Positions 1,375 to 46,516 of a DNA stretch of 64,000 bases are shown piece after piece. Both the position numbers and the translations under genes were made by a program. How positions within the stretch are numbered: position 1 is the first letter of the stretch; every line of letters starts with the position of its first letter. Under the pieces are notes generated by a model. That model was not told the origin of the DNA, did no database searches, and was given only the letters and a program-made list of their open reading frames with translations. The DNA is from a virus (lineage: Duplodnaviria; Heunggongvirae; Uroviricota; Caudoviricetes), in the IMG/VR virus record IMGVR_UViG_2851955134_000009. One strand, 5' to 3'.

Positions 1375-1377
1375 TTG

Positions 1378-1411
1378 TATATGTGGCTGCTATTTTTGTA
1401 GCCACATATAA
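1378..1411. terminator. hairpin between convergent genes, possible bidirectional terminator
   Basis: Inverted repeat tatatgtggct...agccacatata with an 11-nt loop, lying between the ATPase stop and the portal stop. Confidence 0.35.
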
Positions 1412-1439
1412 ATTACTGTCTGAACTTTATTGTTTTTGT

Positions 1440-2468
1440 TCAAAGTACGTATGGTCTAAACCTAATTATTTCTATTTCAAGCCAGTCGTTTAATTGATCA
1501 AATCTTTTCTGCATGGGCACCAATTCATTGCGCATAAATACCTTACTAGCCTTCTCCACATCCCCAAACCCCCCAACATTATTCGGCAAAATTCCCATCA
1601 TCTGAGGCGGTACGCGGTGTGCAGCCATCATGTCGTCCCGGCTCACGTTCTTGATGTTCAGAAATTCATCTTTCGCTGCGACTTCTGACAACGGGATAAT
1701 CTGAAGTCCGTCCTTTTTGCCGTTAGGCGAGTACATAAACAGATTGCGGAAGTTGCCTGGACCTTTGGCGCTTTTCATCGCGTTGCGGAGGTTGTTCACA
1801 TCCTCCTGATTCTGCGCGGCGTCGGTCATGTACATGATGAAGCCTGCATGACTACCGTTGATGTAATACTTACGGCGGAACAGCGTGGCGGATTCGTTGA
1901 GCAGGGCGGATGGAATGGCAGAAAGATAGCCGGGCAGGCCGTAGATCTCCTGGTTGATGTCCGGTTCCATCAGATGAAAAATGCTGCCTTTCGTGAACTG
2001 ATACGGCTGGGTTGTCATACCGTATTGCACAAACCAGTAGGTATCCAGGTCTAACCCGCGTCGGGTGTATTTTGCCAGCGCAGGCTCAAGGGCGATAACT
2101 TCACCGAATCGGTTCGTGCGTTTCTCCAGGTAGGCGTTACCAAATACCAGATAGTCCTGCACAAAACGCGAAAAAGCCTGTTGGCTGAGCAGCGGATGAG
2201 GGATATAGGTACTGGTCAGAATGTTGCACTTTACTGCAATCGGGGAACTGTGATGCACGGCAGCGCGGAAGGTGCGCGCCAGTCCGTCAAAGCTGACGGG
2301 AGGCTCATACCAGCGATCTGTCTGAACACATTCCACATAGTCCAGCAGTTCGCGGCGGTCAAGTACTGGAACGGGATCACCGAAGCTGAATGCTTCGGCT
2401 GAAGTCTGGTTTTTATGCTGGATCTGATTCGTCGCCGCAGCGCGGTTTTTCTTACTCTTTCCCATCAA
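1440..2468 (-). CDS. Q: phage portal protein (P2 gpQ-like)
   Basis: 342 aa, size and position as P2 Q, divergent from the O-N-M operon and adjacent to terminase P. The last ~15 codons are AT-rich. Confidence 0.85.
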   Translation of the reverse strand: MMGKSKKNRAAATNQIQHKNQTSAEAFSFGDPVPVLDRRELLDYVECVQTDRWYEPPVSFDGLARTFRAAVHHSSPIAVKCNILTSTYIPHPLLSQQAFSRFVQDYLVFGNAYLEKRTNRFGEVIALEPALAKYTRRGLDLDTYWFVQYGMTTQPYQFTKGSIFHLMEPDINQEIYGLPGYLSAIPSALLNESATLFRRKYYINGSHAGFIMYMTDAAQNQEDVNNLRNAMKSAKGPGNFRNLFMYSPNGKKDGLQIIPLSEVAAKDEFLNIKNVSRDDMMAAHRVPPQMMGILPNNVGGFGDVEKASKVFMRNELVPMQKRFDQLNDWLEIEIIRFRPYVL

Positions 2469-4231
2469 AAAATCTCCACAATATTGCTGGTATTGGCGGA
2501 CTCGCCCTGCAGCGGTTCGTTAAACAGTGCGTGCATTGTTGCCCAGGCCAGATCGGCGTGGCTGGCTTCTTCGCTGCGGCTGGCTTCATAGGTTGGGCGG
2601 TTGCCACTGGCGGTGGTGGCACGACGGATTGCCATGAATGACTGCGCAATGTCGGTGTGCCCGGCGTCAAACTCCAGACGGCGGTGGCTGATAATGTCGT
2701 AGGCCTTGAGTACCAGGGCATTTTTAACGTTGGGGTTGTAGACAAACTCCCGGACGGCAGGAAAGAACGCTTTCACGTTCTCGTAAACTCCGTGACCGAC
2801 ACCTGTCGAGTCGATACCGATATAGGTCACGTTGTACTGTTCGGTCAGTTTTTTGATGGCGTCAGCCTGGGCGCGGAAGTCCATCCCGCGCCACTGGTGA
2901 CGCTCAAGAATGCGAAACTTACCGCCTGGCACGGCTGGCGGTGCCACCACCACGCATCCGGCGCTGTCGCCGTTCTGCGTACCTTTTGCCGGGTCATAAC
3001 CGATCCACACTTCTCGCCAGCCAAACGGGCGCAGGGCCAGTGCATGAAAGTCGGTCCAGACTTCCCAACTGTCCACCATGCATGCCTGCAGCTCGCTGAG
3101 CGGAAATACGGACGCGAGATCGTCCACGAATTCACACATCAGCAGGTTCTGGTATTCGTCCGGGCTGTATTCCATGCGCAACTGGTCAAGGTCGAACAGG
3201 TTACAGCCGCCGCGCACCGCATCTTCCACGGTGACTATCTGGCGGTATTGCCCGTCTGCACACAGCAGGCCTGGAGCCAGATTGCTGTGGGACAGGTCGA
3301 TGTCCACCTTGTCGGCTTTATTGCGCCCACGGTTGAATAGCGCACCGGACCAGAACGGATAAGCACTGTGTGTCAGGCTGGATGGCGTGGAAAAATAGGT
3401 TTGTCGCCATTTTTTGTGAATAGCCATACCGGAAGCCACTTTGCGCAGCTCCTGGAATTTCGGTATCCAGAAATATTCATCCAGATACAGGTTGCCGTGG
3501 TAACTCTGGGCCGTGCGGGCATTGGTGCCGAGGAAATACAGTGTGGCCCCGTTGGGAAGCACCATCGGATCGCCTTTCAGCTCCACTTCCACTTCTTTGG
3601 CGAAGTCGATGATGTACTGCTTAAAGACGTGGGCCTGTGCCTTGCTGGCGGAAAGGAAAATCTGGTTACGTCCGGTAAGCAGAGCGTCAATCAGGGCTTC
3701 ACGGGCAAAGTAAAAGGTCGCGCCGATCTGGCGTGACTTCAGCAGGTTGCGGATGCGGTTGGTTTTTCCGGCTTCCCACCAGTGGCGCTGGTAGTTGAAC
3801 ATGGAGGAATGGAAAATTTCTTCCAGCTTCTCAATCTGTTCATCGGTGAAAACATTCTTTTCAGGCTGACGGCGTGGGCCTTTGTTGCGGTTGGCGACGT
3901 TAGGGTTTAAGTCGGCTTCGTTGCCGCCATTGTTAAACTTGCCGATCCGCGCGTGGCGCTCCGACTGGCGCGCCAGCAGGTCAATTTCTTTAAAGTCTTT
4001 CCCTTCTTTGTGCTCCTTCATAATGAGCTGGCAGTAGCGTGCGGCGGTAGTGAGCTGCATCTGATCCAGCGGCCCATAGTCACCCCACTTGTCGCGTTTT
4101 TTCCAGCTGTGAACGGTTGCAACTTTCTCGCCCAGCATTTCAGCAATGCGGGCGACGCGGTATCCCTGAAAGTACAGCAGCATGGCCTGCCGACGGGGAT
4201 CGAGATCTGCGGGTGTCAGTGTGGTGTTCAT
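2465..4231 (-). CDS. P: terminase large (ATPase) subunit (P2 gpP-like)
   Basis: 588 aa, overlaps the Q start by 4 nt, P2-type synteny. Confidence 0.85.
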   Translation of the reverse strand: MNTTLTPADLDPRRQAMLLYFQGYRVARIAEMLGEKVATVHSWKKRDKWGDYGPLDQMQLTTAARYCQLIMKEHKEGKDFKEIDLLARQSERHARIGKFNNGGNEADLNPNVANRNKGPRRQPEKNVFTDEQIEKLEEIFHSSMFNYQRHWWEAGKTNRIRNLLKSRQIGATFYFAREALIDALLTGRNQIFLSASKAQAHVFKQYIIDFAKEVEVELKGDPMVLPNGATLYFLGTNARTAQSYHGNLYLDEYFWIPKFQELRKVASGMAIHKKWRQTYFSTPSSLTHSAYPFWSGALFNRGRNKADKVDIDLSHSNLAPGLLCADGQYRQIVTVEDAVRGGCNLFDLDQLRMEYSPDEYQNLLMCEFVDDLASVFPLSELQACMVDSWEVWTDFHALALRPFGWREVWIGYDPAKGTQNGDSAGCVVVAPPAVPGGKFRILERHQWRGMDFRAQADAIKKLTEQYNVTYIGIDSTGVGHGVYENVKAFFPAVREFVYNPNVKNALVLKAYDIISHRRLEFDAGHTDIAQSFMAIRRATTASGNRPTYEASRSEEASHADLAWATMHALFNEPLQGESANTSNIVEIF

Positions 4232-4373
4232 GGCACAAACCTACAGCCTTGAATGACGGCTTTCCCCGCCTGCGGTTTGTGTGGTTGTCGGTACAAATAC
4301 CGCGCATTGTTTCACTGCCCCCATCACCGCAACCATAAGGCTCCAGTAAGTTTTTTCTAACGGAGCACGGCTC

Positions 4374-5207
4374 ATGACAGTGAAAGCAAAGCGTTTTCGC
4401 ATCGGGGTGGAAGGTGCCACCACCGACGGACGCGAAATCCAGCGTGAATGGCTGGAACAGATGGCAGCCAGCTACAACCCGGCGGTGTATACCGCGCTGA
4501 TTAACCTTGAGCACATCAAGTCTTATCTGCCGGACAGCACCTTTAACCGCTACGGCAAGGTGACGGCGCTGTTTGCTGAAGAAATCACGGAAGGCCCGCT
4601 GGCAGGCAAGATGGCGCTGTATGCCGATGTTGAGCCAACGGAGTCCCTGGTGGAACTGGTGAAAAAAGGCCAGAAATTATTCACCTCTATGGAAGTCAGC
4701 CCGAAGTTCGCTGATACGGGCAAAGCCTACCTGGTTGGCCTGGCTGCCACTGATGACCCTGCCAGTCTGGGTACGGAAATGCTGACATTCAGCGCCAGTG
4801 CAGCCCATAACCCGCTGGCAAACCGCAAGCAGAATCCTGCCAATCTTTTTACCGCTGCAGAGGAAACGGTGATCGAACTGGAAGAAATCCAGGAGGACAA
4901 GCCGTCCCTGTTTACCCGTGTCACGGCGCTGTTCACCAAAAAAGAGCAGTCCGACGATGCCCGGTTCTCTGATGTGCATAAGGCCGTGGAACTGGTCGCC
5001 ACTGAGCAGCAAAACCTGAGTGCGCGCACCGAAAAATCCCTGTCTGAACAGCAAGAACGCCTGTCTGAGCTGGAGACAGCCATGCAGGCACAGCTGACCG
5101 CCTTTAACGAACTGGTGGACAAGCTGAGCCATGAAGACAGCCGCCAGGACTACCGCCAGCGTGCAACAGGCGGTAACGCCCACGCTGACACTCTGACCAA
5201 TTGCTGA
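4374..5207 (+). CDS. O: capsid scaffolding protein (P2 gpO-like)
   Basis: 277 aa, first gene of the rightward head operon, followed by the major capsid gene. Confidence 0.8.
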   Translation: MTVKAKRFRIGVEGATTDGREIQREWLEQMAASYNPAVYTALINLEHIKSYLPDSTFNRYGKVTALFAEEITEGPLAGKMALYADVEPTESLVELVKKGQKLFTSMEVSPKFADTGKAYLVGLAATDDPASLGTEMLTFSASAAHNPLANRKQNPANLFTAAEETVIELEEIQEDKPSLFTRVTALFTKKEQSDDARFSDVHKAVELVATEQQNLSARTEKSLSEQQERLSELETAMQAQLTAFNELVDKLSHEDSRQDYRQRATGGNAHADTLTNC

Positions 5208-5223
5208 TGGAGCACAAAACCTG

Positions 5224-6282
5224 ATGAAGAAGAATACCCGCTTTGCTTTTAACGCTTACCTGCAGCAGCTGGCGCGTCTGAACGGTGTGGCAGTTGAAGA
5301 ACTGTCCAGCAAGTTCACCGTGGAGCCGTCCGTGCAGCAGACGCTGGAAGACCAGATCCAGCAGTCCGCCGCTTTCCTGACGCTGATTAATGTCACCCCG
5401 GTGACTGAACAGTCCGGTCAACTGCTGGGGCTGGGTGTTGGTAGTACCATTGCCGGAACCACTGATACCACCGCGAAAGAGCGTGAACCCGTCGATCCGA
5501 CGCTGATGGTCGATGTGGAATACAAATGCGAGCAGACCAACTTTGACACGGTGCTGACCTACGCGAAGCTGGATCTGTGGGCGAAGTTTCAGGATTTCCA
5601 GGTGCGTATCCGTGACGCCATCGTGAAACGTCAGGCACTGGACCGCATCATGATCGGCTTTAACGGCGTGAAGCGTGCGAAAACCTCCAACCGTAGCGAA
5701 AACCCGCTGCTGCAGGATGTGAATAAAGGTTGGCTGCAGAAAATCCGTGAGGATGCACCGGATCACGTCATGGGCAGCACCACCACGGGCGGTGAAACCA
5801 CACCGGGCGCGGTGAAAGTCGGTAAAGGTGGCGAATATGCCAACCTGGACGCCGTGGTGATGGATGCCGTTAATGAGCTTATCGACGTGGTCTACCAGGA
5901 CGATGACGATCTGGTGGTGATTTGCGGTCGTGAACTGTTGTCTGATAAGTATTTCCCGCTGGTCAACAAAGAGCAGGAAAACAGTGAAAAACTGGCTGCC
6001 GATATGATCATCAGCCAGAAACGCATGGGTGGCCTGCAGGCCGTGCGTGCGCCGTTCTTCCCGCCGAATGCGCTGCTGATCACCCGTCTGGATAACCTGT
6101 CCATCTACTGGCAGGAAGACACCCGCCGCCGTTCAGTTATCGACAACCCGAAACGTGATCGGATTGAAAACTTTGAATCCGTTAACGAAGCCTATGTGGT
6201 TGAGGACTACCGCTGCGCCGCACTGGTGGAAAACATCCAGATTGGCGACTTCAGCGCCGCCGCAGCAGAAGCCGGAGCGTAA
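5224..6282 (+). CDS. N: major capsid protein (P2 gpN-like)
   Basis: 352 aa, position and size as P2 N. Confidence 0.85.
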   Translation: MKKNTRFAFNAYLQQLARLNGVAVEELSSKFTVEPSVQQTLEDQIQQSAAFLTLINVTPVTEQSGQLLGLGVGSTIAGTTDTTAKEREPVDPTLMVDVEYKCEQTNFDTVLTYAKLDLWAKFQDFQVRIRDAIVKRQALDRIMIGFNGVKRAKTSNRSENPLLQDVNKGWLQKIREDAPDHVMGSTTTGGETTPGAVKVGKGGEYANLDAVVMDAVNELIDVVYQDDDDLVVICGRELLSDKYFPLVNKEQENSEKLAADMIISQKRMGGLQAVRAPFFPPNALLITRLDNLSIYWQEDTRRRSVIDNPKRDRIENFESVNEAYVVEDYRCAALVENIQIGDFSAAAAEAGA

Positions 6283-6285
6283 CCT

Positions 6286-6936
6286 ATGAACCTGAGTCCC
6301 GCACGGCAGCATCGCCTGCGCGTTCAGGCTGAACAGGCCGCCCGCGAGGGCGGCAGTGTTCGCCACGCGTCGGGCTATGACCTGATGTTGCTGCAACTGG
6401 CGGAAGATCGCCGCCGTCTCAAGGGCGTTCAGTCCACGGTCAAAAAAGCGGAAATCAAAGTGGAGCTGCTGCCGAAGTACGCCGCCTGGGCGGAGGGTGT
6501 CCTGGCTGCCGGAGGCACTCAACAGGATGACGTGCTGATGTACGTGATGCTGTGGCGCATTGATGCCGGAGATTATGCCGGGGCGCTGGAGATCGGGCGT
6601 CATGCCCTGCGTCATGGCTGGGTGATGCCGCTGGGTAACCGCAACGTGCAGACCGTGCTGGCAGAGGAAATGGCAGACGCAGCGCAGAGCGCAATGCTTG
6701 CCGCCACCGGCTTTGATGCCGATCTGTTACTGCAGACACTGGAACTAACAGACGGTCTGGATATGCCGGACCAGTCACGGGCGCGTCTGCATAAAGCGAT
6801 TGGCGCTGTCCTGAGTGAAAGCAATCCGGCTTCCGCCCTTAATCATCTCAACCATGCGTTACAGCTCGATCCCCGCTGTGGCGTGAAAAAAGACAAACAG
6901 CAGCTGGAGCGCAGACTGCGCAATGACAGCCGCTGA
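6286..6936 (+). CDS. M: terminase small/endonuclease subunit (P2 gpM-like)
   Basis: 216 aa, immediately after N as in P2. Confidence 0.7.
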   Translation: MNLSPARQHRLRVQAEQAAREGGSVRHASGYDLMLLQLAEDRRRLKGVQSTVKKAEIKVELLPKYAAWAEGVLAAGGTQQDDVLMYVMLWRIDAGDYAGALEIGRHALRHGWVMPLGNRNVQTVLAEEMADAAQSAMLAATGFDADLLLQTLELTDGLDMPDQSRARLHKAIGAVLSESNPASALNHLNHALQLDPRCGVKKDKQQLERRLRNDSR

Positions 6937-7031
6937 CAGAACGTGCCCCCGCGCACGGGCGGCACGGGGTGGCGAAAGGCACTGCCACATCAAAACCCCG
7001 TCCACCGCCCTTTATTTCAGGAGAAAGCAGC

Positions 7032-7496
7032 ATGAAGTTTGTTGCGCCAGAACAGGCACCGGAACAGGCGGAAATCATCAGAAATACGCCGTTCTGGCCT
7101 GATGTGGACCTGTCGGAGTTTCGCAGTGTCATGCGCACTGACGGTACGGTGACGCCGCCGCGTTTAAAGCAGGTTGCGCTGTCGGCAATTTCGGAGGTCA
7201 ACGCAGAGCTGTATGAGTTTCGCAGACGTCAGCAGATGCTGGGGTATGTGTCGCTGGCTGAGGTTCCGGCGGAACAGTTGGACGGCAAAAGTGAGCGCAT
7301 TCAGCACTATTTCAACGCGGTTTACTGCTGGGCACGCGCCATGCTCAACGAACGATACCAGGACTATGACGCTACGGCATCCGGTGTGAAGCGAGGCGAG
7401 GAACTGGCGGAATCCTGCGGTGATTTGTGGCGTGACGCCCGCTGGGCCATCAGCCGGGTGCAGGATGCGCCGCACTGCACAGTGGAGCTTATCTGA
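7032..7496 (+). CDS. L: head completion/stabilisation protein (P2 gpL-like)
   Basis: Start moved to ATG 7032 (MKFVAPEQ...), which has a GGAG-type RBS upstream; the longer track ORF from 6969 begins inside the M gene. Confidence 0.7.
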   Translation: MKFVAPEQAPEQAEIIRNTPFWPDVDLSEFRSVMRTDGTVTPPRLKQVALSAISEVNAELYEFRRRQQMLGYVSLAEVPAEQLDGKSERIQHYFNAVYCWARAMLNERYQDYDATASGVKRGEELAESCGDLWRDARWAISRVQDAPHCTVELI

Positions 7497-7699
7497 TGAA
7501 AGTGCGTGCGCATCAGTATGACACGGTGGACGCGCTTTGCTGGCGTCATTACGGGCGCACGCAGGGTGTCACGGAGCAGGTACTGAAGGCAAATCCGGGG
7601 CTTGCCGAATATGGCCCCTTTTTACCTCACGGGCTGCAGGTGGAGCTGCCGGACATTCCGACCACCACCACCGTGCAGACCGTCCAGCTATGGGACTGA
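7496..7699 (+). CDS. X: tail protein X (P2 gpX-like)
   Basis: 67 aa, same size as P2 X, start overlaps the L stop. Confidence 0.7.
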   Translation: MKVRAHQYDTVDALCWRHYGRTQGVTEQVLKANPGLAEYGPFLPHGLQVELPDIPTTTTVQTVQLWD

Positions 7700-7702
7700 A
7701 TT

Positions 7703-7918
7703 ATGACGCTTGAGCGAATCAGCGCCTTTATCACGTATTGCATCGCCGTTGTGCTGGCCTGGCTGGGGGATTTGTCCATCAAGGATGCTTCAACGCTGGG
7801 CGGCCTGATGATCGGTGTGCTGATGCTGGCTATCAACTGGTACTACAAACACAAAGCCTACCAGCTTCTGCGCGACGGGCAGATCTCGCGGGAGGACTAT
7901 GAATCCATCAATCGTTAA
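7703..7918 (+). CDS. putative holin
   Basis: 71-aa protein with two hydrophobic segments, directly upstream of the endolysin. Confidence 0.5.
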   Translation: MTLERISAFITYCIAVVLAWLGDLSIKDASTLGGLMIGVLMLAINWYYKHKAYQLLRDGQISREDYESINR

Positions 7919-8414
7919 ACGCTGCCTTGTCGGGGCTGTGCTGGCTATTGCTGCCACGCTGCCGGGTTTTCAGCAGCTTCACACCTCCGTGGAGGGACTG
8001 AAACTGATCGCCGATTACGAAGGCTGTCGTCTGCAGCCGTATCAGTGCAGCGCGGGTGTCTGGACCGACGGCATTGGTAATACATCGGGCGTCATTCCCG
8101 GCAAAACAATCACGGAACGACAGGCAGCAGAAGGGCTGATCTCCAACGTGCTGCGTGTGGAGCGGGCGCTGGAAAGGTGTGTGAAGCAACAGCCACCGCA
8201 GAAGGTGTATGACGCTACGGTGTCGTTTGCCTTCAACGTGGGGACGGGCAATGCCTGTAGTTCCACGCTGGTGAAATTGCTCAATCAGCGGCGCTGGGCG
8301 GATGCGTGCCGACAGTTGCCGCGCTGGGTGTATGTAAAAGGTGTGTTTAATCAGGGGCTAGATAACCGCCGAGCGCGGGAGATGGCCTGGTGCCTTAAAG
8401 GAGCTGGACTATGA
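7899..8414 (+). CDS. endolysin, lysozyme-like with N-terminal signal-anchor (SAR-type)
   Basis: 171 aa; hydrophobic N-terminus (LVGAVLAIAATL) followed by a lysozyme-like domain; sits inside the lysis cassette. Confidence 0.7.
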   Translation: MNPSIVKRCLVGAVLAIAATLPGFQQLHTSVEGLKLIADYEGCRLQPYQCSAGVWTDGIGNTSGVIPGKTITERQAAEGLISNVLRVERALERCVKQQPPQKVYDATVSFAFNVGTGNACSSTLVKLLNQRRWADACRQLPRWVYVKGVFNQGLDNRRAREMAWCLKGAGL

Positions 8415-8839
8415 TACGTGCGCTGGCGGTAGTGGCGGCGCTGGCACTCGTTGCGCTGGGCTGGCAGTCGTGGCGGCTTAACAGCGCCAGCCATACCATC
8501 GAAACGCAGCGCGCGGCGCTGAAAAGTAAAGCGCACGAACTAACGAAGAAAAATAGCCAGCTGATCAGTCTGTCCATTCTGGCTGAAACCAACAACCGGG
8601 AGCAGGCGCGGCTCTACGCCGAAGCAGAACAGACCAGCGCACAGCTGAGACAACGACAACGCCGGATCGAGGAACTGAAACGTGAGAACGAGGATTTACG
8701 CCACTGGGCTGATACTCCTTTGCCTGCTGACATTATCCGGCTGCGGGAACGTCCGGCACTCACCGGAGGTGCAGCTTACCGTCAGTGGTTGTCCGCGAGT
8801 GACGCCGTGTCGGCTGGAGCAGGCAGCACCGCGCACTAA
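8411..8839 (+). CDS. lysB: i-spanin (Rz/LysB-like)
   Basis: N-terminal TM segment and coiled-coil-rich periplasmic part; a lipoprotein ORF is embedded in the +1 frame. Confidence 0.65.
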   Translation: MIRALAVVAALALVALGWQSWRLNSASHTIETQRAALKSKAHELTKKNSQLISLSILAETNNREQARLYAEAEQTSAQLRQRQRRIEELKRENEDLRHWADTPLPADIIRLRERPALTGGAAYRQWLSASDAVSAGAGSTAH

Positions 8840-8918
8840 CGGTGATCTGAATGCGTTGCTGGATGAAACGGAGGCCGCCTGGGCGGTCTGTGCAGACAAA
8901 GTGGACATGATTATTTGA
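8682..8918 (+). CDS. lysC: o-spanin (Rz1/LysC-like), 3' end truncated by the Mu-like insertion
   Basis: Lipoprotein-like N-terminus (LLTLSGCG). The ORF stops at the TGA supplied by the first three bases of the inserted element. Joining the flanks restores 18 more codons (96 aa total) that overlap the R start. Confidence 0.65.
   Translation: MRTRIYATGLILLCLLTLSGCGNVRHSPEVQLTVSGCPRVTPCRLEQAAPRTNGDLNALLDETEAAWAVCADKVDMII
8910..8915. repeat. ATTATT direct repeat, left copy (putative target-site duplication)
   Basis: Identical hexamer directly abuts both termini of the Mu-like element (8910-8915 and 46511-46516). Confidence 0.6.
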
Positions 8919-8959
8919 TGCGCCGCGCGATAAATGCGCTCTATCTTGTGCGATAAATG
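8916..8959. repeat. Mu-like element terminal repeat, left-hand copy in window coordinates (putative transposase-binding sites)
   Basis: TGATGCGCCGCGCGATAAATG...GTGCGATAAATGG; matches the reverse complement of 46467-46510 at positions 1-4, 7, 9, 12, 14-21, 33-35 and 37-43. Confidence 0.55.
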
Positions 8960-8993
8960 GCATCCACGCGGCGTTTCATTATTTGAAAAAGAA

Positions 8994-9566
8994 TTACATT
9001 TCAGGTTCCGTTATGACAGTCCCAACAGGGTGATAGCGGTAGATCGTTGACAGTCCAATATCATAGATAATTGCCAGCCGCTTTCTGTCATACCCTTTCT
9101 GGAGCAATCTTGCGATCTGCTCATGCTGCTCCTTCGTCAGTTTCGGGCGACGTCCTCCAACTCTCCCTTGTGCTCGCGCAGCAGCCAGTCCTGCCAGCGT
9201 GCGCTCAACTATCAGTTCACGCTCCATTTCTGCCAGTGCACCCATCATATGAAAAAAGAACCTTCCCATCGGAGTGCTGGTATCGATTGAATCCGTCAGA
9301 CTGCGAAAATTGACACCTTTTGCGCGTAGCTCTTCTGTGAGAGCAATGAGGTGTTTCATTCTTCTACCCAACCGATCCAGCTTCCAGACCACCAATGTAT
9401 CCCCTCTTTTAAGGCACTTTAAAGCGCGTTTCAGGCCTGGTCGTTCCGACTTGGTTCCGCTCATTTTGTCCTCAAAAATCTGTTCACATCCTGCGCACAT
9501 TAATGCATTGCGTTGCAAATCTGTGTTTTGGTCATTTGTTGACACACGTATGTAGCCAATCAGCAT
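8994..9566 (-). CDS. serine DNA invertase (Gin/Pin/Hin family)
   Basis: 190 aa from MLIGYIRVSTNDQ...; catalytic-serine N-terminal domain and C-terminal HTH typical of invertases. Start placed at the internal Met because the longer track ORF overlaps the fibre segment. Confidence 0.85.
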   Translation of the reverse strand: MLIGYIRVSTNDQNTDLQRNALMCAGCEQIFEDKMSGTKSERPGLKRALKCLKRGDTLVVWKLDRLGRRMKHLIALTEELRAKGVNFRSLTDSIDTSTPMGRFFFHMMGALAEMERELIVERTLAGLAAARAQGRVGGRRPKLTKEQHEQIARLLQKGYDRKRLAIIYDIGLSTIYRYHPVGTVITEPEM

Positions 9567-9622: not shown

Positions 9623-9648
9623 GAGATAAACGTTGGTTTGGGGGAAGG
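9623..9648. other. invertase crossover site (hix/gix-like), Mu-like cassette, invertase-proximal
   Basis: gagataaacgttggtttgggggaagg; core AAACCAACGTTT is shared with the sites at 11224, 50937 and 52762, and is inverted relative to 11224. Confidence 0.5.
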
Positions 9649-10099
9649 CTCTGCATTGCCTGTTGGTGTACCGGTTCCATGGCCCACCGCCACACCGCCA
9701 GCAGGCTGGTTACAGTGCAACGGAGCTACGTTCACCAAAGAACAATATCCTGTTCTGGCCAGAGTCTACCCGACCCTCCGTCTTCCCGATTTGCGCGGTG
9801 AGTTTATCCGTGGATGGGACGGTGGTCGCAAGGTTGATACCGGGCGTGCGCTACTTTCATTTCAGGAAGGGACTATCGTATCCGGTTTTGATGATAATGA
9901 TACCGGAGATATCAGTTCGCTCGGCTCTACACAATACGGATTTGGTGACGCTTTAACCTCTAATCAACTGGGGGTCATAAATGGCAAAAAGTGGATATTT
10001 GATGCATCCTCTAAAGGTGCACAAAGATATGACTGGTGGGCTTATGTATCAGCTCGCCCCCGCAATATCGCATTTAACTATATCGTGAGGGCGGCGTGA
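9638..10099 (+). CDS. alternative tail-fibre C-terminal (tip) segment, promoterless inverted cassette
   Basis: Begins with GEGSALPVGVPVPWPTATPPAGW, the same junction peptide found inside the fibre gene at 10720-12489; opposite orientation; ends NIAFNYIVRAA. Confidence 0.6.
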   Translation: MGEGSALPVGVPVPWPTATPPAGWLQCNGATFTKEQYPVLARVYPTLRLPDLRGEFIRGWDGGRKVDTGRALLSFQEGTIVSGFDDNDTGDISSLGSTQYGFGDALTSNQLGVINGKKWIFDASSKGAQRYDWWAYVSARPRNIAFNYIVRAA

Positions 10100-10720: not shown

Positions 10721-12489
10721 TAAACTGCCCTCACAATGTAATTAAGTGCAATGCTACGGGGTCTGACAGTGATACCCTTCGCATACCCGCTTCTGATAGA
10801 GGTCAGAATAGTAGCCTGCATACCATTGTCTGACATTGCCACGACAGGATCGCTGAATGTTGTCCCGTCCGGCATTTTAAAGCTGCCCTCACGAAGGTCT
10901 GTAATGGAATCTTCATTGTTGAATCCCATGCCGACTATCCCCGAGGTTCCCGTAGTGTCCTGGTTATAATAATCCAGCATTGCTGTTCTTAACAGCGTTG
11001 CCCCTTGTGCGGACAGCAACTTACGTCCTGTATCAACTTTGCGCCCGTCGTCCCATCCACGGATAAACTCACCGCGCAAATCGGGAAGACGGAGGGTCGG
11101 GTAGGCTCTGGCCAGAACAGGATATTGTTCTTTTGTAAAGGCGCGCCCGTCGCACTTTAACCAGCCTGCTGGCGGTGTGGCGGTGGGCCACGGAACAGGC
11201 ACACCAACGGGTAGCGCCGAGCCTTCTCCTAAACCAAGGTAATTGAGGACATCTTTTATACTGCCCTTAGCGATAATAGCGCGACCAATAGCTGTAAGGG
11301 TTGCCAGCGCTGCGCGGTCTGCTCCGGTAAAATAAGGCAACCGATCTGCTGCAGTGGCAAGTCCTGCCAGAGCAGTGAGCGTGGCATCTGCCGGTTGTTT
11401 TCCGTTTGCCAGATCGTATGCAGCCTTGACCGCTTTCGGTGTGGCGGCCAGTATTTCAGACGTGCTGTTGATGGCACTGCTCAGTTGTACGGTGCCTTTT
11501 GCCGTCAGCGAGGCCGCAGGCACTCCCGTTATCTGACTCCACGGGTGAGTGTGGCTGGCAGGCGCCTTGCCGGCTGCCAGGTCGTATGCAGCCTTGACCG
11601 CTTTCGGTGTGGCGGCCAGCGTTTCAGACGTGCTGTTGATGGCACTGCTCAGTTGTACGATCCCTTTACGGGTCGTTGTTGCATCCTGGGCTGTGTATTT
11701 TCCCCGGGCCAGATCATACGCGATTTTCACAGCCTTCGGCGTGGCAGCCTCAGTTTCTGATTGACTGTCCGTGGCGCTGCTCAGTTGTACGGTGCCTTTT
11801 GCCGTCAGTGAAGCCGCAGGCACTCCCGTTATCTGACTCCACGGGTGAGTGTGGCTGGCAGGCGCCTTGCCGGCTGCCAGGTCGTATGCAGCCTTGACCG
11901 CTTTCGGTGTGGCGGCCAGCGTTTCAGACGTGCTGTTGATGGCACTGCTCAGTTGTACGATCCCTTTACGGGTCGTTGTTGCATCCTGGGCTGTGTATTT
12001 TCCCCGGGCCAGATCATACGCGATTTTCACAGCCTTCGGCGTGGCAGCCTCAGTTTCTGATTGACTGTCCGTGGCGCTGCTCAGTTGTACGGTGCCTTTT
12101 GCCGTCAGTGAAGCCGCAGGCACTCCCGTTATCTGACTCCACGGGTGAGTGTGGCTGGCAGGCGCCTTGCCGGCTGCCAGGTCGTATGCAGCCTTGACCG
12201 CTTTTGGTGTGGCGGCCAGCGTTTCAGAGGTGCTGTTGGTGGCACTGCTCAGTTGGGTGAACCCCTTAGCTGTCAGTGTCGCGTCCGGGTGGTTACGGGA
12301 ACGTACGTGTTCAGCCAGTGACTGTGCGGCTTCCTCCGTTTTCTTCTTCAGCCATTTCGTCCTGTTTGCCAGTTGCCGGGGGGCTCGATTTGATATCCCG
12401 TCTGCACCACCCAGAACCGGATCTGATGTCTCCAGTTGATAGATATTTTCTTCCCACTTTTCTGTTTCATTCAGGTTTCCCATAATCAA
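10720..12489 (-). CDS. tail fibre protein with internal tandem repeats
   Basis: 589 aa; Ala/Thr-rich repeats of about 100 aa; C-terminal tip segment begins at the crossover junction (LGLGEGSALPVGVPVPWP). Confidence 0.8.
   Translation of the reverse strand: MIMGNLNETEKWEENIYQLETSDPVLGGADGISNRAPRQLANRTKWLKKKTEEAAQSLAEHVRSRNHPDATLTAKGFTQLSSATNSTSETLAATPKAVKAAYDLAAGKAPASHTHPWSQITGVPAASLTAKGTVQLSSATDSQSETEAATPKAVKIAYDLARGKYTAQDATTTRKGIVQLSSAINSTSETLAATPKAVKAAYDLAAGKAPASHTHPWSQITGVPAASLTAKGTVQLSSATDSQSETEAATPKAVKIAYDLARGKYTAQDATTTRKGIVQLSSAINSTSETLAATPKAVKAAYDLAAGKAPASHTHPWSQITGVPAASLTAKGTVQLSSAINSTSEILAATPKAVKAAYDLANGKQPADATLTALAGLATAADRLPYFTGADRAALATLTAIGRAIIAKGSIKDVLNYLGLGEGSALPVGVPVPWPTATPPAGWLKCDGRAFTKEQYPVLARAYPTLRLPDLRGEFIRGWDDGRKVDTGRKLLSAQGATLLRTAMLDYYNQDTTGTSGIVGMGFNNEDSITDLREGSFKMPDGTTFSDPVVAMSDNGMQATILTSIRSGYAKGITVRPRSIALNYIVRAV
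11224..11249. other. invertase crossover site (hix/gix-like) inside the Mu-like fibre gene
   Basis: ttctcctaaaccaaggtaattgagga, at the constant/variable junction of the fibre protein. Confidence 0.5.
11521..12120. repeat. two identical 300-bp tandem copies within the tail-fibre gene (diverged partial copies flank)
   Basis: Sequence from 11521 onward is identical to that from 11821 onward; a third, diverged copy starts at 12121; in frame (100 aa per unit). Confidence 0.8.
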
Positions 12490-34135: not shown

Positions 34136-34267
34136 AAAGATGTCTCCTTGTGTAGTGGAGACAGCATCACAAATACGGGGCGCGAAGGATTTTAAAGCGC
34201 GTTAAGAGAGCCGGGGATACGGGATGCGCAGAATAAACGATGAATTATTCACAGAGGAGAATACGAT

Positions 34268-35011
34268 ATGACGCACACACTGAATCCGGTCATCACTGTC
34301 ACTGTGTCCGGTCCTGTGGGCAGCGGTAAAAGTTACGTACTGGCGCGGATAGAAGAGATGGTGAAACAGGAACTCGGAAACAGCGTCATTGTCGATGCTG
34401 CTGACGTGGAGAATGAGCGCCGTATGAGTGGCGATGATCTGACGACCTGGCAGAAGCCACGGGCTGGCACAGTGATCAGGCTGGAGGAATACACGGGACA
34501 GGGCCTGTTGTCATACGGCGAGGAGCGTATCTGTCGGACGAATGAGCTGCTGGATGTTATATGCCCCGCGGGCCGGCAACCCTGGATACTGCCCGATGCA
34601 CTGCATGCCACCATTGCGGCACTGATGACAGTTTACGATCAGGAACTGCTCATGAAGGAGTTACGTAAACTCACCGGTCAGCCAACAGAATGTTTTTCGG
34701 CCCCGAAGTACGGGAAGCAGGAACACATCCCGGTGAACACAATCCCCGTTAACCAGCCTCCCCGGTTCTTCGACGAATACATTCTGACACCGGAAAATAA
34801 AGCTGAGCATGAAGAGATCAAAGAGGCGTTGTTCCGGGAAATCAGGAAGATTGCTGAAATGCAACTGGGGGGCGGGCTGGACAGAGTGATGGCGAGAGGA
34901 GAATGGGAGTCGCTGTTTGAAAGAGTTTCCCCGGAATTACTGCCCCTCGCACTGGCTATCGGGATTATGCAGACAGCAGATAAACCTCACTTACGTTCAT
35001 CAAACACGTAG
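34268..35011 (+). CDS. P-loop NTPase/kinase-like protein of unknown function
   Basis: Walker A motif GPVGSGKS near the N-terminus, followed by VIVDAAD; no further recognisable domain. Confidence 0.4.
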   Translation: MTHTLNPVITVTVSGPVGSGKSYVLARIEEMVKQELGNSVIVDAADVENERRMSGDDLTTWQKPRAGTVIRLEEYTGQGLLSYGEERICRTNELLDVICPAGRQPWILPDALHATIAALMTVYDQELLMKELRKLTGQPTECFSAPKYGKQEHIPVNTIPVNQPPRFFDEYILTPENKAEHEEIKEALFREIRKIAEMQLGGGLDRVMARGEWESLFERVSPELLPLALAIGIMQTADKPHLRSSNT

Positions 35012-35064
35012 CGCAGAATATTTTGCCGGTGAGTACATAAAAATCATCATTTAAGGAGTGCATC

Positions 35065-35280
35065 ATGAATCCCCGATTAACGTTAACAGAACATCAGCGC
35101 CGTGCTGAAGCAGTGAACAATGTTCTGGAAGATATTATCCGGTTACATCGCGGAGAACTGAGTGTCTGTCGTGCCGCTTTTCATTTTCAGGGAATACAAA
35201 AGCAGTTTGATACTTCTGTTTTTGCAGAAGGTATTACTTATGCCCTGGACCGGATAAGGTCAGAAAATCGCCCCGGATAA
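35065..35280 (+). CDS. hypothetical small protein
   Basis: 71-aa ORF with an RBS-like AAGGAG upstream, between the P-loop gene and the methyltransferase. Confidence 0.3.
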   Translation: MNPRLTLTEHQRRAEAVNNVLEDIIRLHRGELSVCRAAFHFQGIQKQFDTSVFAEGITYALDRIRSENRPG

Positions 35281-35471
35281 TCCCTAAACCACATTAACAG
35301 AAATCCCACTATCCCTGCCGCATCATGAAAGAACGACCAGCCCGGTGCTTCGGACCCACCGGGCTGGCCATCGTCCCACAGAAGTGGCTGTGAGCCGACC
35401 GAGGTTCAGTCAGTCTCGCGAGACCAGACTAGCCTGCCATATTTTTAATAATTGTAAAAGGCTTACAGATT

Positions 35472-36236
35472 ATGAAAATGCAGACATTACCCATCGTTCC
35501 ATGGATTGGTGGCAAACGCCGCCTTGCAAAACACATTCTGCCGCTGTTTCCGGCGCATGAATGTTATGTGGAGCCGTTTTGTGGGGCAGCAGCGCTCTAT
35601 TTTCTTAAGACACCCGGCAAGATCGAAGTCATCAATGATATCAACGGTGAACTGGTGAATCTGTACCGGGTGGTAAAGCATCACCTGGAAGAATTTGTCC
35701 GCCAGTTCAAATGGGCGCTGGTCAGCCGTCAGATCTACAAATGGCTGCAGATCACCCCGGAAGAAACACTGACGGATATCCAGCGTGCGGCACGGTTCTA
35801 CTACCTTCAGAAGCAGGCGTTTGGCGGCAAGGTGGCAGAGCACAGCTTCGGTACCTCCACCACATCCCCGCCACGCTTCAACCTGCTGCGTATTGAAGAA
35901 GAACTGTCAGCGGCACACCTGCGGCTTTCCAGAACAGTCATAGAACACATGGACTGGCAACAGTGCATTGAGCGTTATGATCGTCCGCACACGCTGTTCT
36001 ACTGCGACCCACCGTACCTGGGTACGGAAGGCTATGGTGTGGATTTTCCTGAAGGGAACTACTCGCGGCTGGCAGAGCTGGCCCGGTGCATCAGAGGAAA
36101 AATGATAATTTCGGTGAACGACATCCCGCAGATGCGCGAGGTGTTCACTGGACTGAACATACAGACAGTGAATATCAACTACAGTCTGGCGGGTAAATCC
36201 ACGCCGCGCCGTGAACTGCTAATCTGCAACTTCTGA
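35472..36236 (+). CDS. DNA N6-adenine methyltransferase (Dam/D12 class)
   Basis: AdoMet-binding motif EPFCGAAALYF near the N-terminus and catalytic DPPY motif; 254 aa. Confidence 0.8.
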   Translation: MKMQTLPIVPWIGGKRRLAKHILPLFPAHECYVEPFCGAAALYFLKTPGKIEVINDINGELVNLYRVVKHHLEEFVRQFKWALVSRQIYKWLQITPEETLTDIQRAARFYYLQKQAFGGKVAEHSFGTSTTSPPRFNLLRIEEELSAAHLRLSRTVIEHMDWQQCIERYDRPHTLFYCDPPYLGTEGYGVDFPEGNYSRLAELARCIRGKMIISVNDIPQMREVFTGLNIQTVNINYSLAGKSTPRRELLICNF

Positions 36237-44590: not shown

Positions 44591-45032
44591 ACAACGTCTT
44601 ATCCAGCTTATCCATATTGCCCGTAATGAACTGGGTATGGATGAAGACACCTACCGCCAGATGTTACAGGGGCTGACCGGTAAAGCCTCAACCAAAGGAA
44701 TGGATACCACACAACTAAACTGCGTGCTGGAATCCATGAAAAAGAAAGGCTTTCGCGTTAAACCAGCCAGAAAAGCCAGCTCCGGTTTACCGCTGGATAA
44801 CCATCCGCAGTCCAGGAAAATTCGTGCGCTATGGCTTGAAATGGCTGCTGCCGGCATTGTTCGTGACCGTTCAGAAAATGCATTAGCGAGGTGGATCAAG
44901 CGGGAAACGGGCATCAGCGCCCTGCGCTGGCTCAGTACTGAACAGGCAGGCAGTGTTATTGAGAAACTGAAGAAGTGGCAGCACAGAGCTGCGGGAGTAA
45001 AACATGAGCGACCTGAATCAGTTTCGAAGTAA
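44580..45032 (+). CDS. GemA-like regulatory protein
   Basis: Start placed at MMTKQRLIQLIHIARNELGMDEDTYRQ; position immediately upstream of the Mor-like gene as in Mu. Confidence 0.55.
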   Translation: MMTKQRLIQLIHIARNELGMDEDTYRQMLQGLTGKASTKGMDTTQLNCVLESMKKKGFRVKPARKASSGLPLDNHPQSRKIRALWLEMAAAGIVRDRSENALARWIKRETGISALRWLSTEQAGSVIEKLKKWQHRAAGVKHERPESVSK

Positions 45033-45402
45033 AGGGCCGGAACTCCTGGTGGAACTGGCACAGCATACCTCTGAGACCGTTCGCGAGATTATTGATATTG
45101 AGCCCGCAATTGCCGACCAGATTGGTCAGGCCGTCGCGAACCGCATGATGCAGGTCTGGGGCGGGCAAAACGTTTATTTCCCGATGGGCATGGTATGGAA
45201 GGTCAGTCAGCGCGACCGGGAAATCTTCAGGGAGTTTAACGGACGTAACCACCATGAACTGGCCCGCAAATTTGGTGTTTCGCTTCAGTGGGTCTACAGC
45301 GTGGTTAAGCGGGTAAGAAAAGAAGAACTGGATCGGATGCAGGGCAGGTTGTTTGATGAAGATCTGCCAGAGGAGACGAAAGACGTTAACAAATCCAGAT
45401 AA
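45004..45402 (+). CDS. Mor/C-family transcriptional activator
   Basis: 132 aa; C-terminal HTH (HELARKFGVSLQWVYSVVKR) typical of Mor/C. Confidence 0.65.
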   Translation: MSDLNQFRSKGPELLVELAQHTSETVREIIDIEPAIADQIGQAVANRMMQVWGGQNVYFPMGMVWKVSQRDREIFREFNGRNHHELARKFGVSLQWVYSVVKRVRKEELDRMQGRLFDEDLPEETKDVNKSR

Positions 45403-45447
45403 TTCCTGCTTGTTAAAGTCCTTTCAAAAATCTCCTTATTGTATAAA

Positions 45448-45479
45448 AGCACGGTAGACCCCTTACCGTGCTTTTTTTA
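45448..45479 (+). terminator. rho-independent terminator after the Mor-like gene
   Basis: Stem agcacggta/taccgtgct with a 7-nt loop followed by a T7 run. Confidence 0.6.
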
Positions 45480-45516
45480 TGCTCTCTCTTTAGTATTCAG
45501 GATGCAGGGAGAAAAT

Positions 45517-46149
45517 ATGTTTGACGTTTCGTTGTTAAATCTGCCATGGGCAACACTGGTGACCCTGACCAGTGGCTATATTGGGTATTTTATTGCGAAT
45601 GTGGGACTGAAGGATCACCACAAGCCCATTGAGGTGACTTTTTCTTCGCTGATTTTTGGCCTGACAGCAATGATGGCTTACCAGGCTGTTATGTGGGCAG
45701 GTCTGAATGCCTGGCTGGCAACACCACCAGCACTTCTGTGTGCCGTTACATGCGGTGCGTGGTGGCGCAGGTACGGTCGCAAATGGATGTACAGATTACT
45801 GTGGAATAATGATATTTCATGGTCTGACGATACCAGCTCAGCATGGCAGGCAATGTTTGATCAAACAGGCTTCAGCGTTACCGAGGTCAGAGTGATTCTT
45901 CGCGATGGTTCCGGTATGATGTCACGGCTGCCAGGGAACTTTGAAGAGTGGCCTAACGGTCCGTTTACCCTGGGGAATAAAGGCGATATGGTTCTTTACG
46001 TCACGCACAGCAGCCCTTCAGGCAGTAACGAATGGGAAGAGTATAAAGGCGTGGTTGATAAGTACTGGGGAGCTCTGGCAACCTATATTCCAGCAGATCA
46101 GATTGCCAGAGTGGAGATCAGGCGCGTTCGTGCAACGAACGATGAATGA
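45517..46149 (+). CDS. membrane protein of unknown function at the element terminus
   Basis: Start placed at MFDVSLLNL; three to four N-terminal TM segments and a C-terminal soluble domain; isolated between a terminator and the element end. Confidence 0.4.
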   Translation: MFDVSLLNLPWATLVTLTSGYIGYFIANVGLKDHHKPIEVTFSSLIFGLTAMMAYQAVMWAGLNAWLATPPALLCAVTCGAWWRRYGRKWMYRLLWNNDISWSDDTSSAWQAMFDQTGFSVTEVRVILRDGSGMMSRLPGNFEEWPNGPFTLGNKGDMVLYVTHSSPSGSNEWEEYKGVVDKYWGALATYIPADQIARVEIRRVRATNDE

Positions 46150-46466
46150 TGTTTATTTTTTCCCTGGGGCAGGGGCTGCCGGCATAGTGGTTTTATTGGC
46201 AGAGGAAGACGATTCTCCTTTTCTACCGGAATCGCGCTCGAACGTCACGATGTGCTTGCTTTTGGGCTTTTCTGAGTAATCCAGGCTATCATGCTTATTG
46301 TTTTGAGTAGTCATTGGAATCATCCTTTTTGTTGCGGGTCATGTTTCAGCAAACTCGATTCTAAGTTGCCAGGAAGGATGATTTCAATGCCCGACTTATC
46401 TATCGTATAGCGGAAAAGAATTTCAGTTCTGTTCACCAGAACCCATGTTAACCCACTCCAATTCGT

Positions 46467-46510
46467 TATTTATCTCACGGATCCCCCTTCATTTATCTCA
46501 TGTCTGATCA
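46467..46510. repeat. Mu-like element terminal repeat, right-hand copy in window coordinates (putative transposase-binding sites)
   Basis: Reverse complement reads TGATCAGACATGAGATAAATG...GTGAGATAAATAA, matching the end at 8916. Confidence 0.55.
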
Positions 46511-46516
46511 ATTATT
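46511..46516. repeat. ATTATT direct repeat, right copy (putative target-site duplication)
   Basis: Identical to 8910-8915. Confidence 0.6.

Follow-up and report, generated by a model that had tools for sequence, protein, structure and literature searches.

The right-hand end of a transposable prophage in a 64,000-nucleotide stretch of Caudoviricetes DNA (IMG/VR record IMGVR_UViG_2851955134_000009; this whole stretch is called the window below) carries a short segment between mor, the gene for a Mor-family activator, and the last nucleotide of the element. With high confidence, we assign this segment as a mobile two-gene accessory cassette, or moron, at a verified prophage end, comprising a DUF6338-like membrane protein (gene 1) and a proline-rich small protein (gene 2). 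The assignment draws on the anatomy of the two genes, the transposon end, the accessory distribution of the cassette and the pairing of its genes, all of which are observed directly. While the moron-at-phage-end layout is known already, the conserved gene pair, its spread over unrelated prophages and the proposed promoter-in-terminator wiring are new. As a full model, we favor a cassette occupying the interval from mor to the element end, in which gene 1 would be driven from a Mor box, gene 2 would be expressed constitutively and restrain gene 1, and the pair would serve phage conflict at the level of the membrane; the probability of this composite model is, in our estimate, about 0.42.

A reading of the sequence alone had placed the membrane-protein gene at the terminus of a Mu-like element, and this terminus can now be fixed at position 46510. 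The transposable prophage spans 8916–46510 (37.6 kb), with a TGATG... left tip and a ...TGATCA right tip. It is surrounded by a P2-like prophage: the P2-like lysis genes end at 8915, and P2-like sequence encoding gpR, gpS and baseplate proteins starts at 46511. The hexamer ATTATT is present on both flanks and as a single copy in the uninterrupted lysB–R junction of phage Cartapus. The heptamer ATTTATC occurs twice at each end with a spacing of 23 bp, the outer repeat lying 20 nt from the tip and the left-end copies (8929 and 8952) being inverted. When phages and 5,426 complete Escherichia coli genomes were searched by megablast, similarity to the region from mor to the membrane-protein open reading frame (ORF) always ended at 46510–46516, and the host gene beside the right end differed among the full-length matches listed (113 E. 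coli genomes in all). The TG...CA tips, the target duplication, the terminal inverted repeats, the Cartapus empty site and the varied host sites identify a Mu-like, BcepMu-type prophage inserted in a P2-like one. The gene content is in keeping with this type: the minus strand encodes tail, head and lysis functions, and the plus strand carries the repressor region followed by genes for a DDE transposase, an ExeA-type ATPase, Gam, GemA and Mor, heading to the right end. The close relative PhiKM is classified as Bcepmuvirus.

The proposal that gene 1 is accessory cargo is borne out by its distribution. The gemA–mor segment is present in 639 of the 5,426 E. coli genomes and the gene 1 ORF in just 131, which places the cassette in ~2% of complete E. 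coli genomes, ST131 and ABU 83972 strains among them. In the cassette-less relatives, strain U13A and phage PhiKM, the element ends ~160 bp past the mor stop codon, and both the strong hairpin and the upstream box described below are missing. Enterobacterales copies (55–100% identity; Klebsiella, Salmonella, Proteus, Serratia, Citrobacter and insect symbionts) almost always show the order gemA, mor, gene 1, small gene and element end, even where Mor identity has fallen to 32–40%. Alphaproteobacterial homologues, 37–46% identical, occupy different settings: i) beside a resolvase or an IS21-type transposase, ii) next to a DUF4411/Peptidase_M78 pair, and iii) in unrelated prophage contigs, inside their head-tail or tail modules, where they follow portal, protease, capsid and connector genes or a tape-measure gene (roles read from ORF order and sizes). 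The small partner gene is again present beside these distant copies in head or tail modules, and some homologues lie outside recognisable prophages. A tblastn search of 50,697 phage records gave one distant match, an unannotated one in a ‘Synechococcus phage’ record, and plasmids contributed one weak full-length match plus Bradyrhizobium fragments. Patchy occurrence among close relatives together with unrelated phage contexts is what defines a moron, and gene 1 is not conserved as an essential early or late gene. As to promoters, terminators and composition, the cassette has an upstream terminator, a promoter for gene 2 and a slightly low GC content (0.50 and 0.47, against 0.546 for the element), but neither a sigma-70 promoter for gene 1 nor a downstream terminator was found.

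Comparison of cargo at the same terminus, as the sequence-only reading had suggested, found U13A and PhiKM empty after mor and further small genes in some lineages. Since other lineages carry these additional genes there, the interval from mor to the element end appears to be a cargo hotspot. One or two extra small genes sit between mor and the cassette in the IMG/VR contigs L053, L063, L066 and L060; they include one for a ~80-residue protein ending in PPPPPPKC and one for a ~85-residue protein with a GWISCQNxLP...THWMPLP motif, which presumably resembles DUF551. The gene that follows mor in KP12 was considered as alternative cargo and set aside; its sequence suggests a late structural gene, in an incomplete record.

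Sequence conservation bears on whether the cassette functions at all. Among 1.84 billion cluster representatives, a profile search returned 521 homologues of the gene 1 protein at E ≤ 0.001, nearly all of ~200–220 residues, and 72 close homologues were collected. Alignment revealed 24 invariant columns, including LPW (residues 9–11), H35 in a cytoplasmic HHK loop, S101 and D104 (ISWSD), D157, Y161, T163 and R202. The lack of any functional match, and the degraded copies in the symbiont genomes of Phlomobacter and Pantoea persica, would fit decaying passenger DNA devoid of function. This we consider extremely improbable: ORFs are intact and of constant length across Alpha- and Gammaproteobacteria, the invariant residues hold over a family of this size, and partner gene, promoter and terminator are conserved alongside. 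Sequences at least 99% identical occur in 91 of the 131 E. coli genomes, and the copies sampled are annotated as intact coding sequences (CDS). Conservation of this kind would speak for purifying selection and for expression.

Gene 1 starts at an ATG with GGGAGA just upstream and encodes 210 residues. The ~210-residue ORF and the soluble C-terminal domain of the sequence-only reading hold; of the three to four transmembrane helices proposed there, three are found and a fourth is not. Hydropathy analysis gave three moderately hydrophobic peaks, and an AlphaFold2 model built from a 34-sequence alignment (mean predicted local distance difference test score 84.7) places helices at residues 11–28, 37–60 and 65–97, followed by a beta-rich domain at 119–205. 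Positive charges cluster in loop 1 (KDHHK) and past helix 3 (five lysine or arginine residues). By the positive-inside rule, this charge distribution predicts that the N-terminus lies outside and the C-terminus inside (N-out/C-in), which places the C-terminal domain in the cytoplasm. The domain is predicted to be an Sm-like barrel, a likeness of fold that would extend to Sm/LSm proteins, including the Sm-like beta domain of MscS. The order of three transmembrane helices and then an Sm-like beta domain is also that of MscS. An MscS-like channel was considered and dropped, MscS chains being absent among the fold matches listed.

Annotation resources placed the gene 1 protein near one family. A Pfam scan of the window protein gave no match at E ≤ 1, DUF6338 included; 19 of 34 relatives matched DUF6338 (PF19865) at E ≤ 1, and relatives scanned singly scored about 22–25.9 bits (E 1e-4 to 1e-5) over helix 2, helix 3 and the linker, below the gathering cut-off of 26.5 bits. 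We therefore treat the protein as DUF6338-like, a probable sister or divergent branch whose scores stay under the threshold for formal membership. Pfam and NCBIfam provided no usable match for either cassette protein, PHROGs returned only ‘unknown function’ families, and neither protein matched PADLOC at E ≤ 1. Searching PDB sequences with the alignment profile gave nothing under E = 0.5, and a literature search with the RefSeq accession of the gene 1 protein had no match.

Class I holins have three transmembrane helices in the N-out/C-in orientation, and the best matches of the transmembrane part in a viral structure library (Foldseek) were weak ones to holins (E 0.02–1). Gene 1 might thus serve the lytic cycle at the membrane, as a holin or antiholin, in lysis timing or in lytic exclusion, with Mor switching it on and the small protein acting as modulator; the late-promoter-type box upstream of gene 1, described below, fits such a role. 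We judge it decidedly unlikely. The element already possesses a holin/SLT endolysin cluster at 32.4–34.1 kb, 11 kb away from gene 1, and ~80% of sister elements manage without the cassette. Holins are small (<150 residues), with a short charged C-terminus, and are encoded beside the endolysin; at 210 residues, including a folded C-terminal domain of 120 residues, the protein is twice the size of a holin, the holin matches reflect a generic three-helix arrangement, and homologues are also encountered outside recognisable prophages.

The ~360 bp that follow gene 1 had been taken for a non-coding tail. They instead contain gene 2 on the minus strand, its promoter and the transposase-binding repeats. 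The gene 2 protein, MTTQNNKHDSLDYSEKPKSK...MPAAPAPGKK, begins with MTTQ and carries the tail PAPGKK; its gene is convergent with gene 1, and 3 nt separate it from the gene 1 stop codon. The promoter of gene 2 is of the strong, constitutive type and matches the consensus at no fewer than 9 of 12 positions in eight of nine enterobacterial loci, even where the proteins are just 55–65% identical. The arrangement recurs: of the 36 distinct loci whose downstream sequence was long enough, 29 carry a convergent ORF of 30–100 residues with its stop codon between −10 and +30 nt of the gene 1 stop codon, the random-position frequency being 12%, and one of the seven loci failing this definition, L074, has the same ORF in a longer call. 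Most of the small partners are hydrophilic and proline-rich and end in a PxPxKK-type tail (PAPGKK, PPPSPKKK, PPAPLGKK, PPPAPDKD, VPPPPKK); a Pfam scan found no domain in them, and they bear no assigned name. Stalling of ribosomes on polyproline was entertained as the role of gene 2 and dropped, as the E. coli version lacks a PPP run. In Bradyrhizobium and Afipia, a conserved protein of ~156–183 residues is encoded ahead of the small gene on its strand (8802–9272 in L009 and L033 and 4791–5342 in L031, all on the minus strand; no Pfam match is recorded for L009), and the cassette may there have a third component.

A comparable association has been reported in Pseudomonas stutzeri, in which three abundant proline-rich proteins of fewer than 50 residues were detected by direct-sequencing mass spectrometry and are encoded just downstream of the DUF6338 gene Pstu14405_RS12030 (PMC10433244). 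In both cases, a protein of ~200 residues with an N-terminal transmembrane region neighbors a proline-rich protein of <60 residues with a PPPPKK-type tail; two of the three P. stutzeri sequences, which end in ...TAPPPPKK and ...PPPPPKKGG (PMC10433244), were compared with the partners described here. Similarity exceeded that of composition-matched shuffles, with z up to 4.8, a level that does not prove homology. The P. stutzeri proteins were described as not conserved beyond P. stutzeri (PMC10433244), whereas the present comparison suggests that the association of DUF6338 with proline-rich small proteins is general. The arrangements differ in that P. stutzeri has three small genes downstream in the same orientation, against one convergent, abutting gene here. 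As a separate observation, the P. stutzeri DUF6338 locus (CP036186.1, 2646334–2667116) is situated ~14 kb from genes for a DUF1156 methylase and an SNF2-type helicase (a second annotation of the helicase gives a phospholipase D-like domain protein); together they resemble DISARM, which hints that the locus may lie in a defence island.

A small gene beside a multi-pass membrane gene is likewise the layout of bacteriocin and immunity genes. DUF6338 occurs in biosynthetic gene clusters, and an antimicrobial role has been raised for the P. stutzeri small proteins (PMC10433244). By analogy, the gene 2 product could be an antimicrobial, toxic or signalling peptide that the membrane protein exports or protects against, and the strong promoter of gene 2 would suit this arrangement. 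A pair of this kind is, in our assessment, highly improbable. The gene 2 protein has no leader or signal sequence, and processing or transport genes are absent nearby; it is hydrophilic, shows little conservation outside its tail and lacks the arginine richness of known proline-rich antimicrobial peptides. Moreover, a toxic peptide would demand a constitutive promoter for the immunity gene, and none is visible for gene 1.

How gene 1 might be expressed is framed by the terminator behind mor, which had been read as rho-independent and which stands up to closer analysis. Its stem, GCACGGTAG/TTACCGTGC (45449–45471), has a 9-bp core and a 5-nt loop and is followed by T7 at 45472–45478; the predicted fold has an energy of −17.9 kcal/mol (z = −6.2), a stability matched by none of 200 shuffles. 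A G+C-rich hairpin of above-chance stability with a U-run at an operon end is the textbook form of an intrinsic terminator, and termination is predicted here; with AAAA on the 5' side and T7 on the 3' side, it is possibly bidirectional. In most lineages (at least six others), a hairpin and T-run likewise precede the ATG by ~40–50 nt. The stem sequences differ (GCGCAATGG, ACACAGTGG, GGGCAGA, GATGAGCA and GCACGGTGGA), for which reason the notion that the terminator dyad itself is a Mor site was dropped.

Just 38 nt separate the T-run from the gene 1 ATG, and a sigma-70 scan found no plus-strand promoter between mor and that ATG. The strong, conserved promoter belongs to gene 2, on the opposite strand. 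The expectation that gene 1 would have its own promoter in the lysogen is thus not sustained; the element upstream of it resembles activator-dependent late promoters. Four such promoters, all on the minus strand at 34206, 26809, 20899 and 14548, precede the lysis, head, tail and baseplate blocks and share the pattern CTTAA-N6-TTAA(A/T)-ATC, a 22-nt G/C-rich spacer and xAxxCT. The strict late box occurs seven times in the element against 0.47 expected. Mor sites of Mu are 16-bp dyads of 5-6-5 organization, centered at −43.5 in place of a −35 element (PMC4390567), and the late-promoter geometry of the present element agrees with them (PMC4390567). By analogy with the geometry at Mu Pm, CTTAA-N6-TTAA(A/T) probably represents the Mor box in this group of phages. 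Upstream of gene 1, a candidate box with a −10-like hexamer scores 9.0 bits against a reduced position weight matrix (PWM) of half-sites and −10; 47 of 225,294 position and spacing combinations score as high, and roughly 0.05 such boxes are expected in the intergenic region. Boxes in other lineages score 11–17 bits, those in five lineages 13–17 bits, with the −10 just before, inside or after the hairpin arm. We kept the reduced matrix as the model and treat its result as suggestive.

Transcription from the candidate box would start near 45462, within the hairpin, and the transcript would lack the left arm. Because the start lies inside the hairpin, such a transcript would escape termination, while transcripts of the early operon would stop. 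A late-type element overlapping the terminator is therefore a plausible driver of gene 1, and it would tie expression to Mor and not to lysogeny. No terminator was found at the 3-nt junction of genes 1 and 2, and their transcripts must overlap as a consequence.

A second, near-palindromic copy of the box was noted at 9408–9424 in the recombinase gene at the other end of the element, scoring 17–21 bits whichever way it is read. Transcription from it could run into the tail-fibre genes that the invertible segment (described below) has on the plus strand, or antisense to the recombinase gene.

An accessory late gene under activator control at a phage terminus has a precedent in Mu mom. Gene 1 resembles com–mom in being non-essential, in sitting apart from the main operons at the very tip of a transposable phage, in its apparent promoter of the Mor/C-family type that lacks a −35 and in its extra layers of control. 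The two differ in that Mom is a cytoplasmic DNA-modification enzyme, C-dependent and encoded at the end distal to mor; gene 1 encodes a membrane protein beside mor in an inverted, BcepMu-type layout, bears no sequence similarity to Mom, and would depend on Mor.

T4 Imm, P22 SieA and HK97 gp15 are small inner-membrane exclusion proteins. The sequence-only reading had gene 1 as a lysogenic-conversion or superinfection-exclusion (Sie) gene, expressed in the lysogen from a promoter of its own. That promoter would be constitutive, and the protein would act alone at the membrane to block DNA entry or alter the envelope. Its accessory nature, the terminal position behind a terminator, the membrane location and the moron-like spread over prophages all agree with this. 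We nonetheless deem it unlikely as stated: the promoter search upstream of gene 1 points to an activator-dependent element, the near-constant partner gene is left out of account, and homology to a known Sie or defence protein is lacking, with no PADLOC match and with an unannotated ORF as the sole match in the phage collection. Modules in which a small soluble protein accompanies a multi-pass protein of the inner membrane do exist as dispensable accessory cargo of prophages, as in RexA/RexB of lambda, gp30/gp31 of mycobacteriophage Butters and gp30/gp31 of Sbash. Along with Mu com–mom, RexAB-like modules offer the nearest functional analogy. None is homologous to the cassette, and their genes are co-transcribed in the lysogen, whereas genes 1 and 2 are convergent and gene 1 has no visible constitutive promoter.

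Taken together, a model for the cassette emerges, in which it occupies a variable position bounded by mor on one side and by the transposase sites at the right end of the BcepMu-like prophage on the other. The terminator would halt early-operon transcripts, and the Mor-box promoter overlapping it would initiate transcripts within the hairpin, such that gene 1 would mainly be made when Mor is present, upon induction or upon infection by a Mor-encoding relative. Gene 2 would be made constitutively and would restrain gene 1 by convergent, overlapping transcription, by binding of its proline-rich tail to the barrel, or by both. The membrane protein, probably oligomeric, would act at the inner membrane in conflict between phages or between phage and host, in an exclusion or abortive type of response, and would have no part in the core phage cycle. 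We hold the Mor-type promoter, restraint by gene 2 and the role in phage conflict, each a prediction, with moderate to low confidence. A further-reaching version, in which a widespread two-component phage-conflict moron of many unrelated prophages deploys an Sm-ring-type membrane effector that, in the Mu-like elements, fires only on the late activator (supplied by induction of the element itself or by an infecting relative) and is restrained by a constitutively made proline-rich partner bound to the barrel, seems distinctly improbable to us.

Several observations weigh against the favored model. The candidate box in the window matches 8 of 10 half-site positions, has an A/T-rich spacer where the late promoters have G/C-rich ones, and is followed by a poor −10, CACGGT; with the full 44-nt PWM, the site ranks 2017th of 75,104 positions, a poor rank that follows from the differing spacers. 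No box was detected in the Klebsiella and Symbiopectobacterium lineages. Prophages with distant copies have no detected Mor, and Mor control hence cannot be general for the cassette. Antisense control cannot be universal either, given that the P. stutzeri small genes are co-directional with the DUF6338 gene. Binding of the tail to the barrel and oligomerisation are conjecture, and PADLOC, Pfam, NCBIfam and PDB sequence searches gave no functional match for the cassette.

Gene 2 may be subject to an additional layer of control. RNA folding predicted a long-range pairing between the −35/spacer region of its promoter and its Shine–Dalgarno (SD) sequence and AUG (−21.9 kcal/mol, z = −2.2), whereas the leader transcribed from gene 2's own promoter is unstructured. 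Covariation is thin: three pairs show compensatory change. The fold-back would silence gene 2 only in transcripts entering from flanking host DNA, a form of protection that makes sense for an element inserting at random. Fold-back inhibition in IS10 and IS50 is alike in that sequence upstream of the start site pairs with the SD and AUG and only read-through is silenced; it differs in that gene 2 is not a transposase gene, and support here comes mainly from conservation. The features discussed are collected in Table 1.

Table 1. Features of the right end of the transposable prophage (window coordinates)
Feature	Position	Strand	Basis or detail
mor (Mor-family activator), last gene of the early operon	45004-45402	+	Pfam PF08765, E = 1e-43; RefSeq in identical E. 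coli loci
Candidate Mor box GTTAA-AGTCCT-TTCAA, 5-6-5 imperfect dyad	45412-45427	+	Likeness to four late promoters
Intrinsic terminator predicted to end the early operon	45445-45478	+	AAAA on 5' side, T7 on 3' side
-10-like hexamer CACGGT	45450-45455	+	22 nt past the box, in the left terminator arm; A2 and T6 present
Gene 1, 210-aa inner-membrane protein, DUF6338-like	45517-46149	+	Three transmembrane helices (N-out, C-in) and cytoplasmic Sm-like beta-barrel, predicted
Gene 2, 53-aa hydrophilic proline-rich protein	46153-46314	-	RefSeq CDS in identical E. coli loci; PHROG 15726
Putative long-range pairing, -35/spacer (46374-46391) with gene 2 SD and AUG (46309-46327)	46309-46391	-	RNA folding
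Sigma-70-type promoter of gene 2, TTGAAA-18-TAGAAT	46358-46387	-	10/12 consensus matches
Right-end transposase-binding repeats and terminal TGATCA	46464-46510	.	ATTTATC at 46468 and 46491
Target duplication ATTATT, right copy	46511-46516	.	Left copy 8910-8915; once in phage Cartapus

Outside the cassette, the insertion has a bearing on the surrounding prophage. P2-like sequence occupies 1–8915 and 46511 to ~60400, with the insertion point between lysB and gpR, and the element ends 4 nt upstream of the gpR TTG start (as annotated in phage Cartapus). In P2, the R–S tail-completion genes belong to a late operon that starts upstream. By analogy, the 37.6-kb insertion would cut R–S from its operon, and the P2-like prophage may be crippled. 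Gene 1 reads outward to R–S with no terminator between.

At the left end, inverted repeats (9630–9858 and 11012–11240; 229 nt, 86% complementary) bracket alternative tail-fibre and assembly genes; a serine recombinase gene (8947–9519) adjoins this segment, which reads as an invertible host-range switch like the G segment of Mu. Between the late promoter and the repressor, the plus-strand interval 34268–36236 forms a second cargo-like block encoding hypothetical proteins of 247 and 71 residues and a DNA adenine methylase.

Many new defence, exclusion and toxin systems have come from prophage accessory cassettes, and the gene pair described here recurs in alpha- and gammaproteobacterial prophages. 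Through it, DUF6338, an orphan Pfam family, becomes connected with a conserved class of small proline-rich proteins that proteomics had detected once before. Three regulatory predictions come with it: a promoter lying within a terminator, control through two abutting convergent genes, and protection of the end-proximal gene by fold-back. If the dependence on Mor holds true, the cassette would be the second case, after Mu mom, of a terminal accessory gene placed on the late-activator circuit of a transposable phage.

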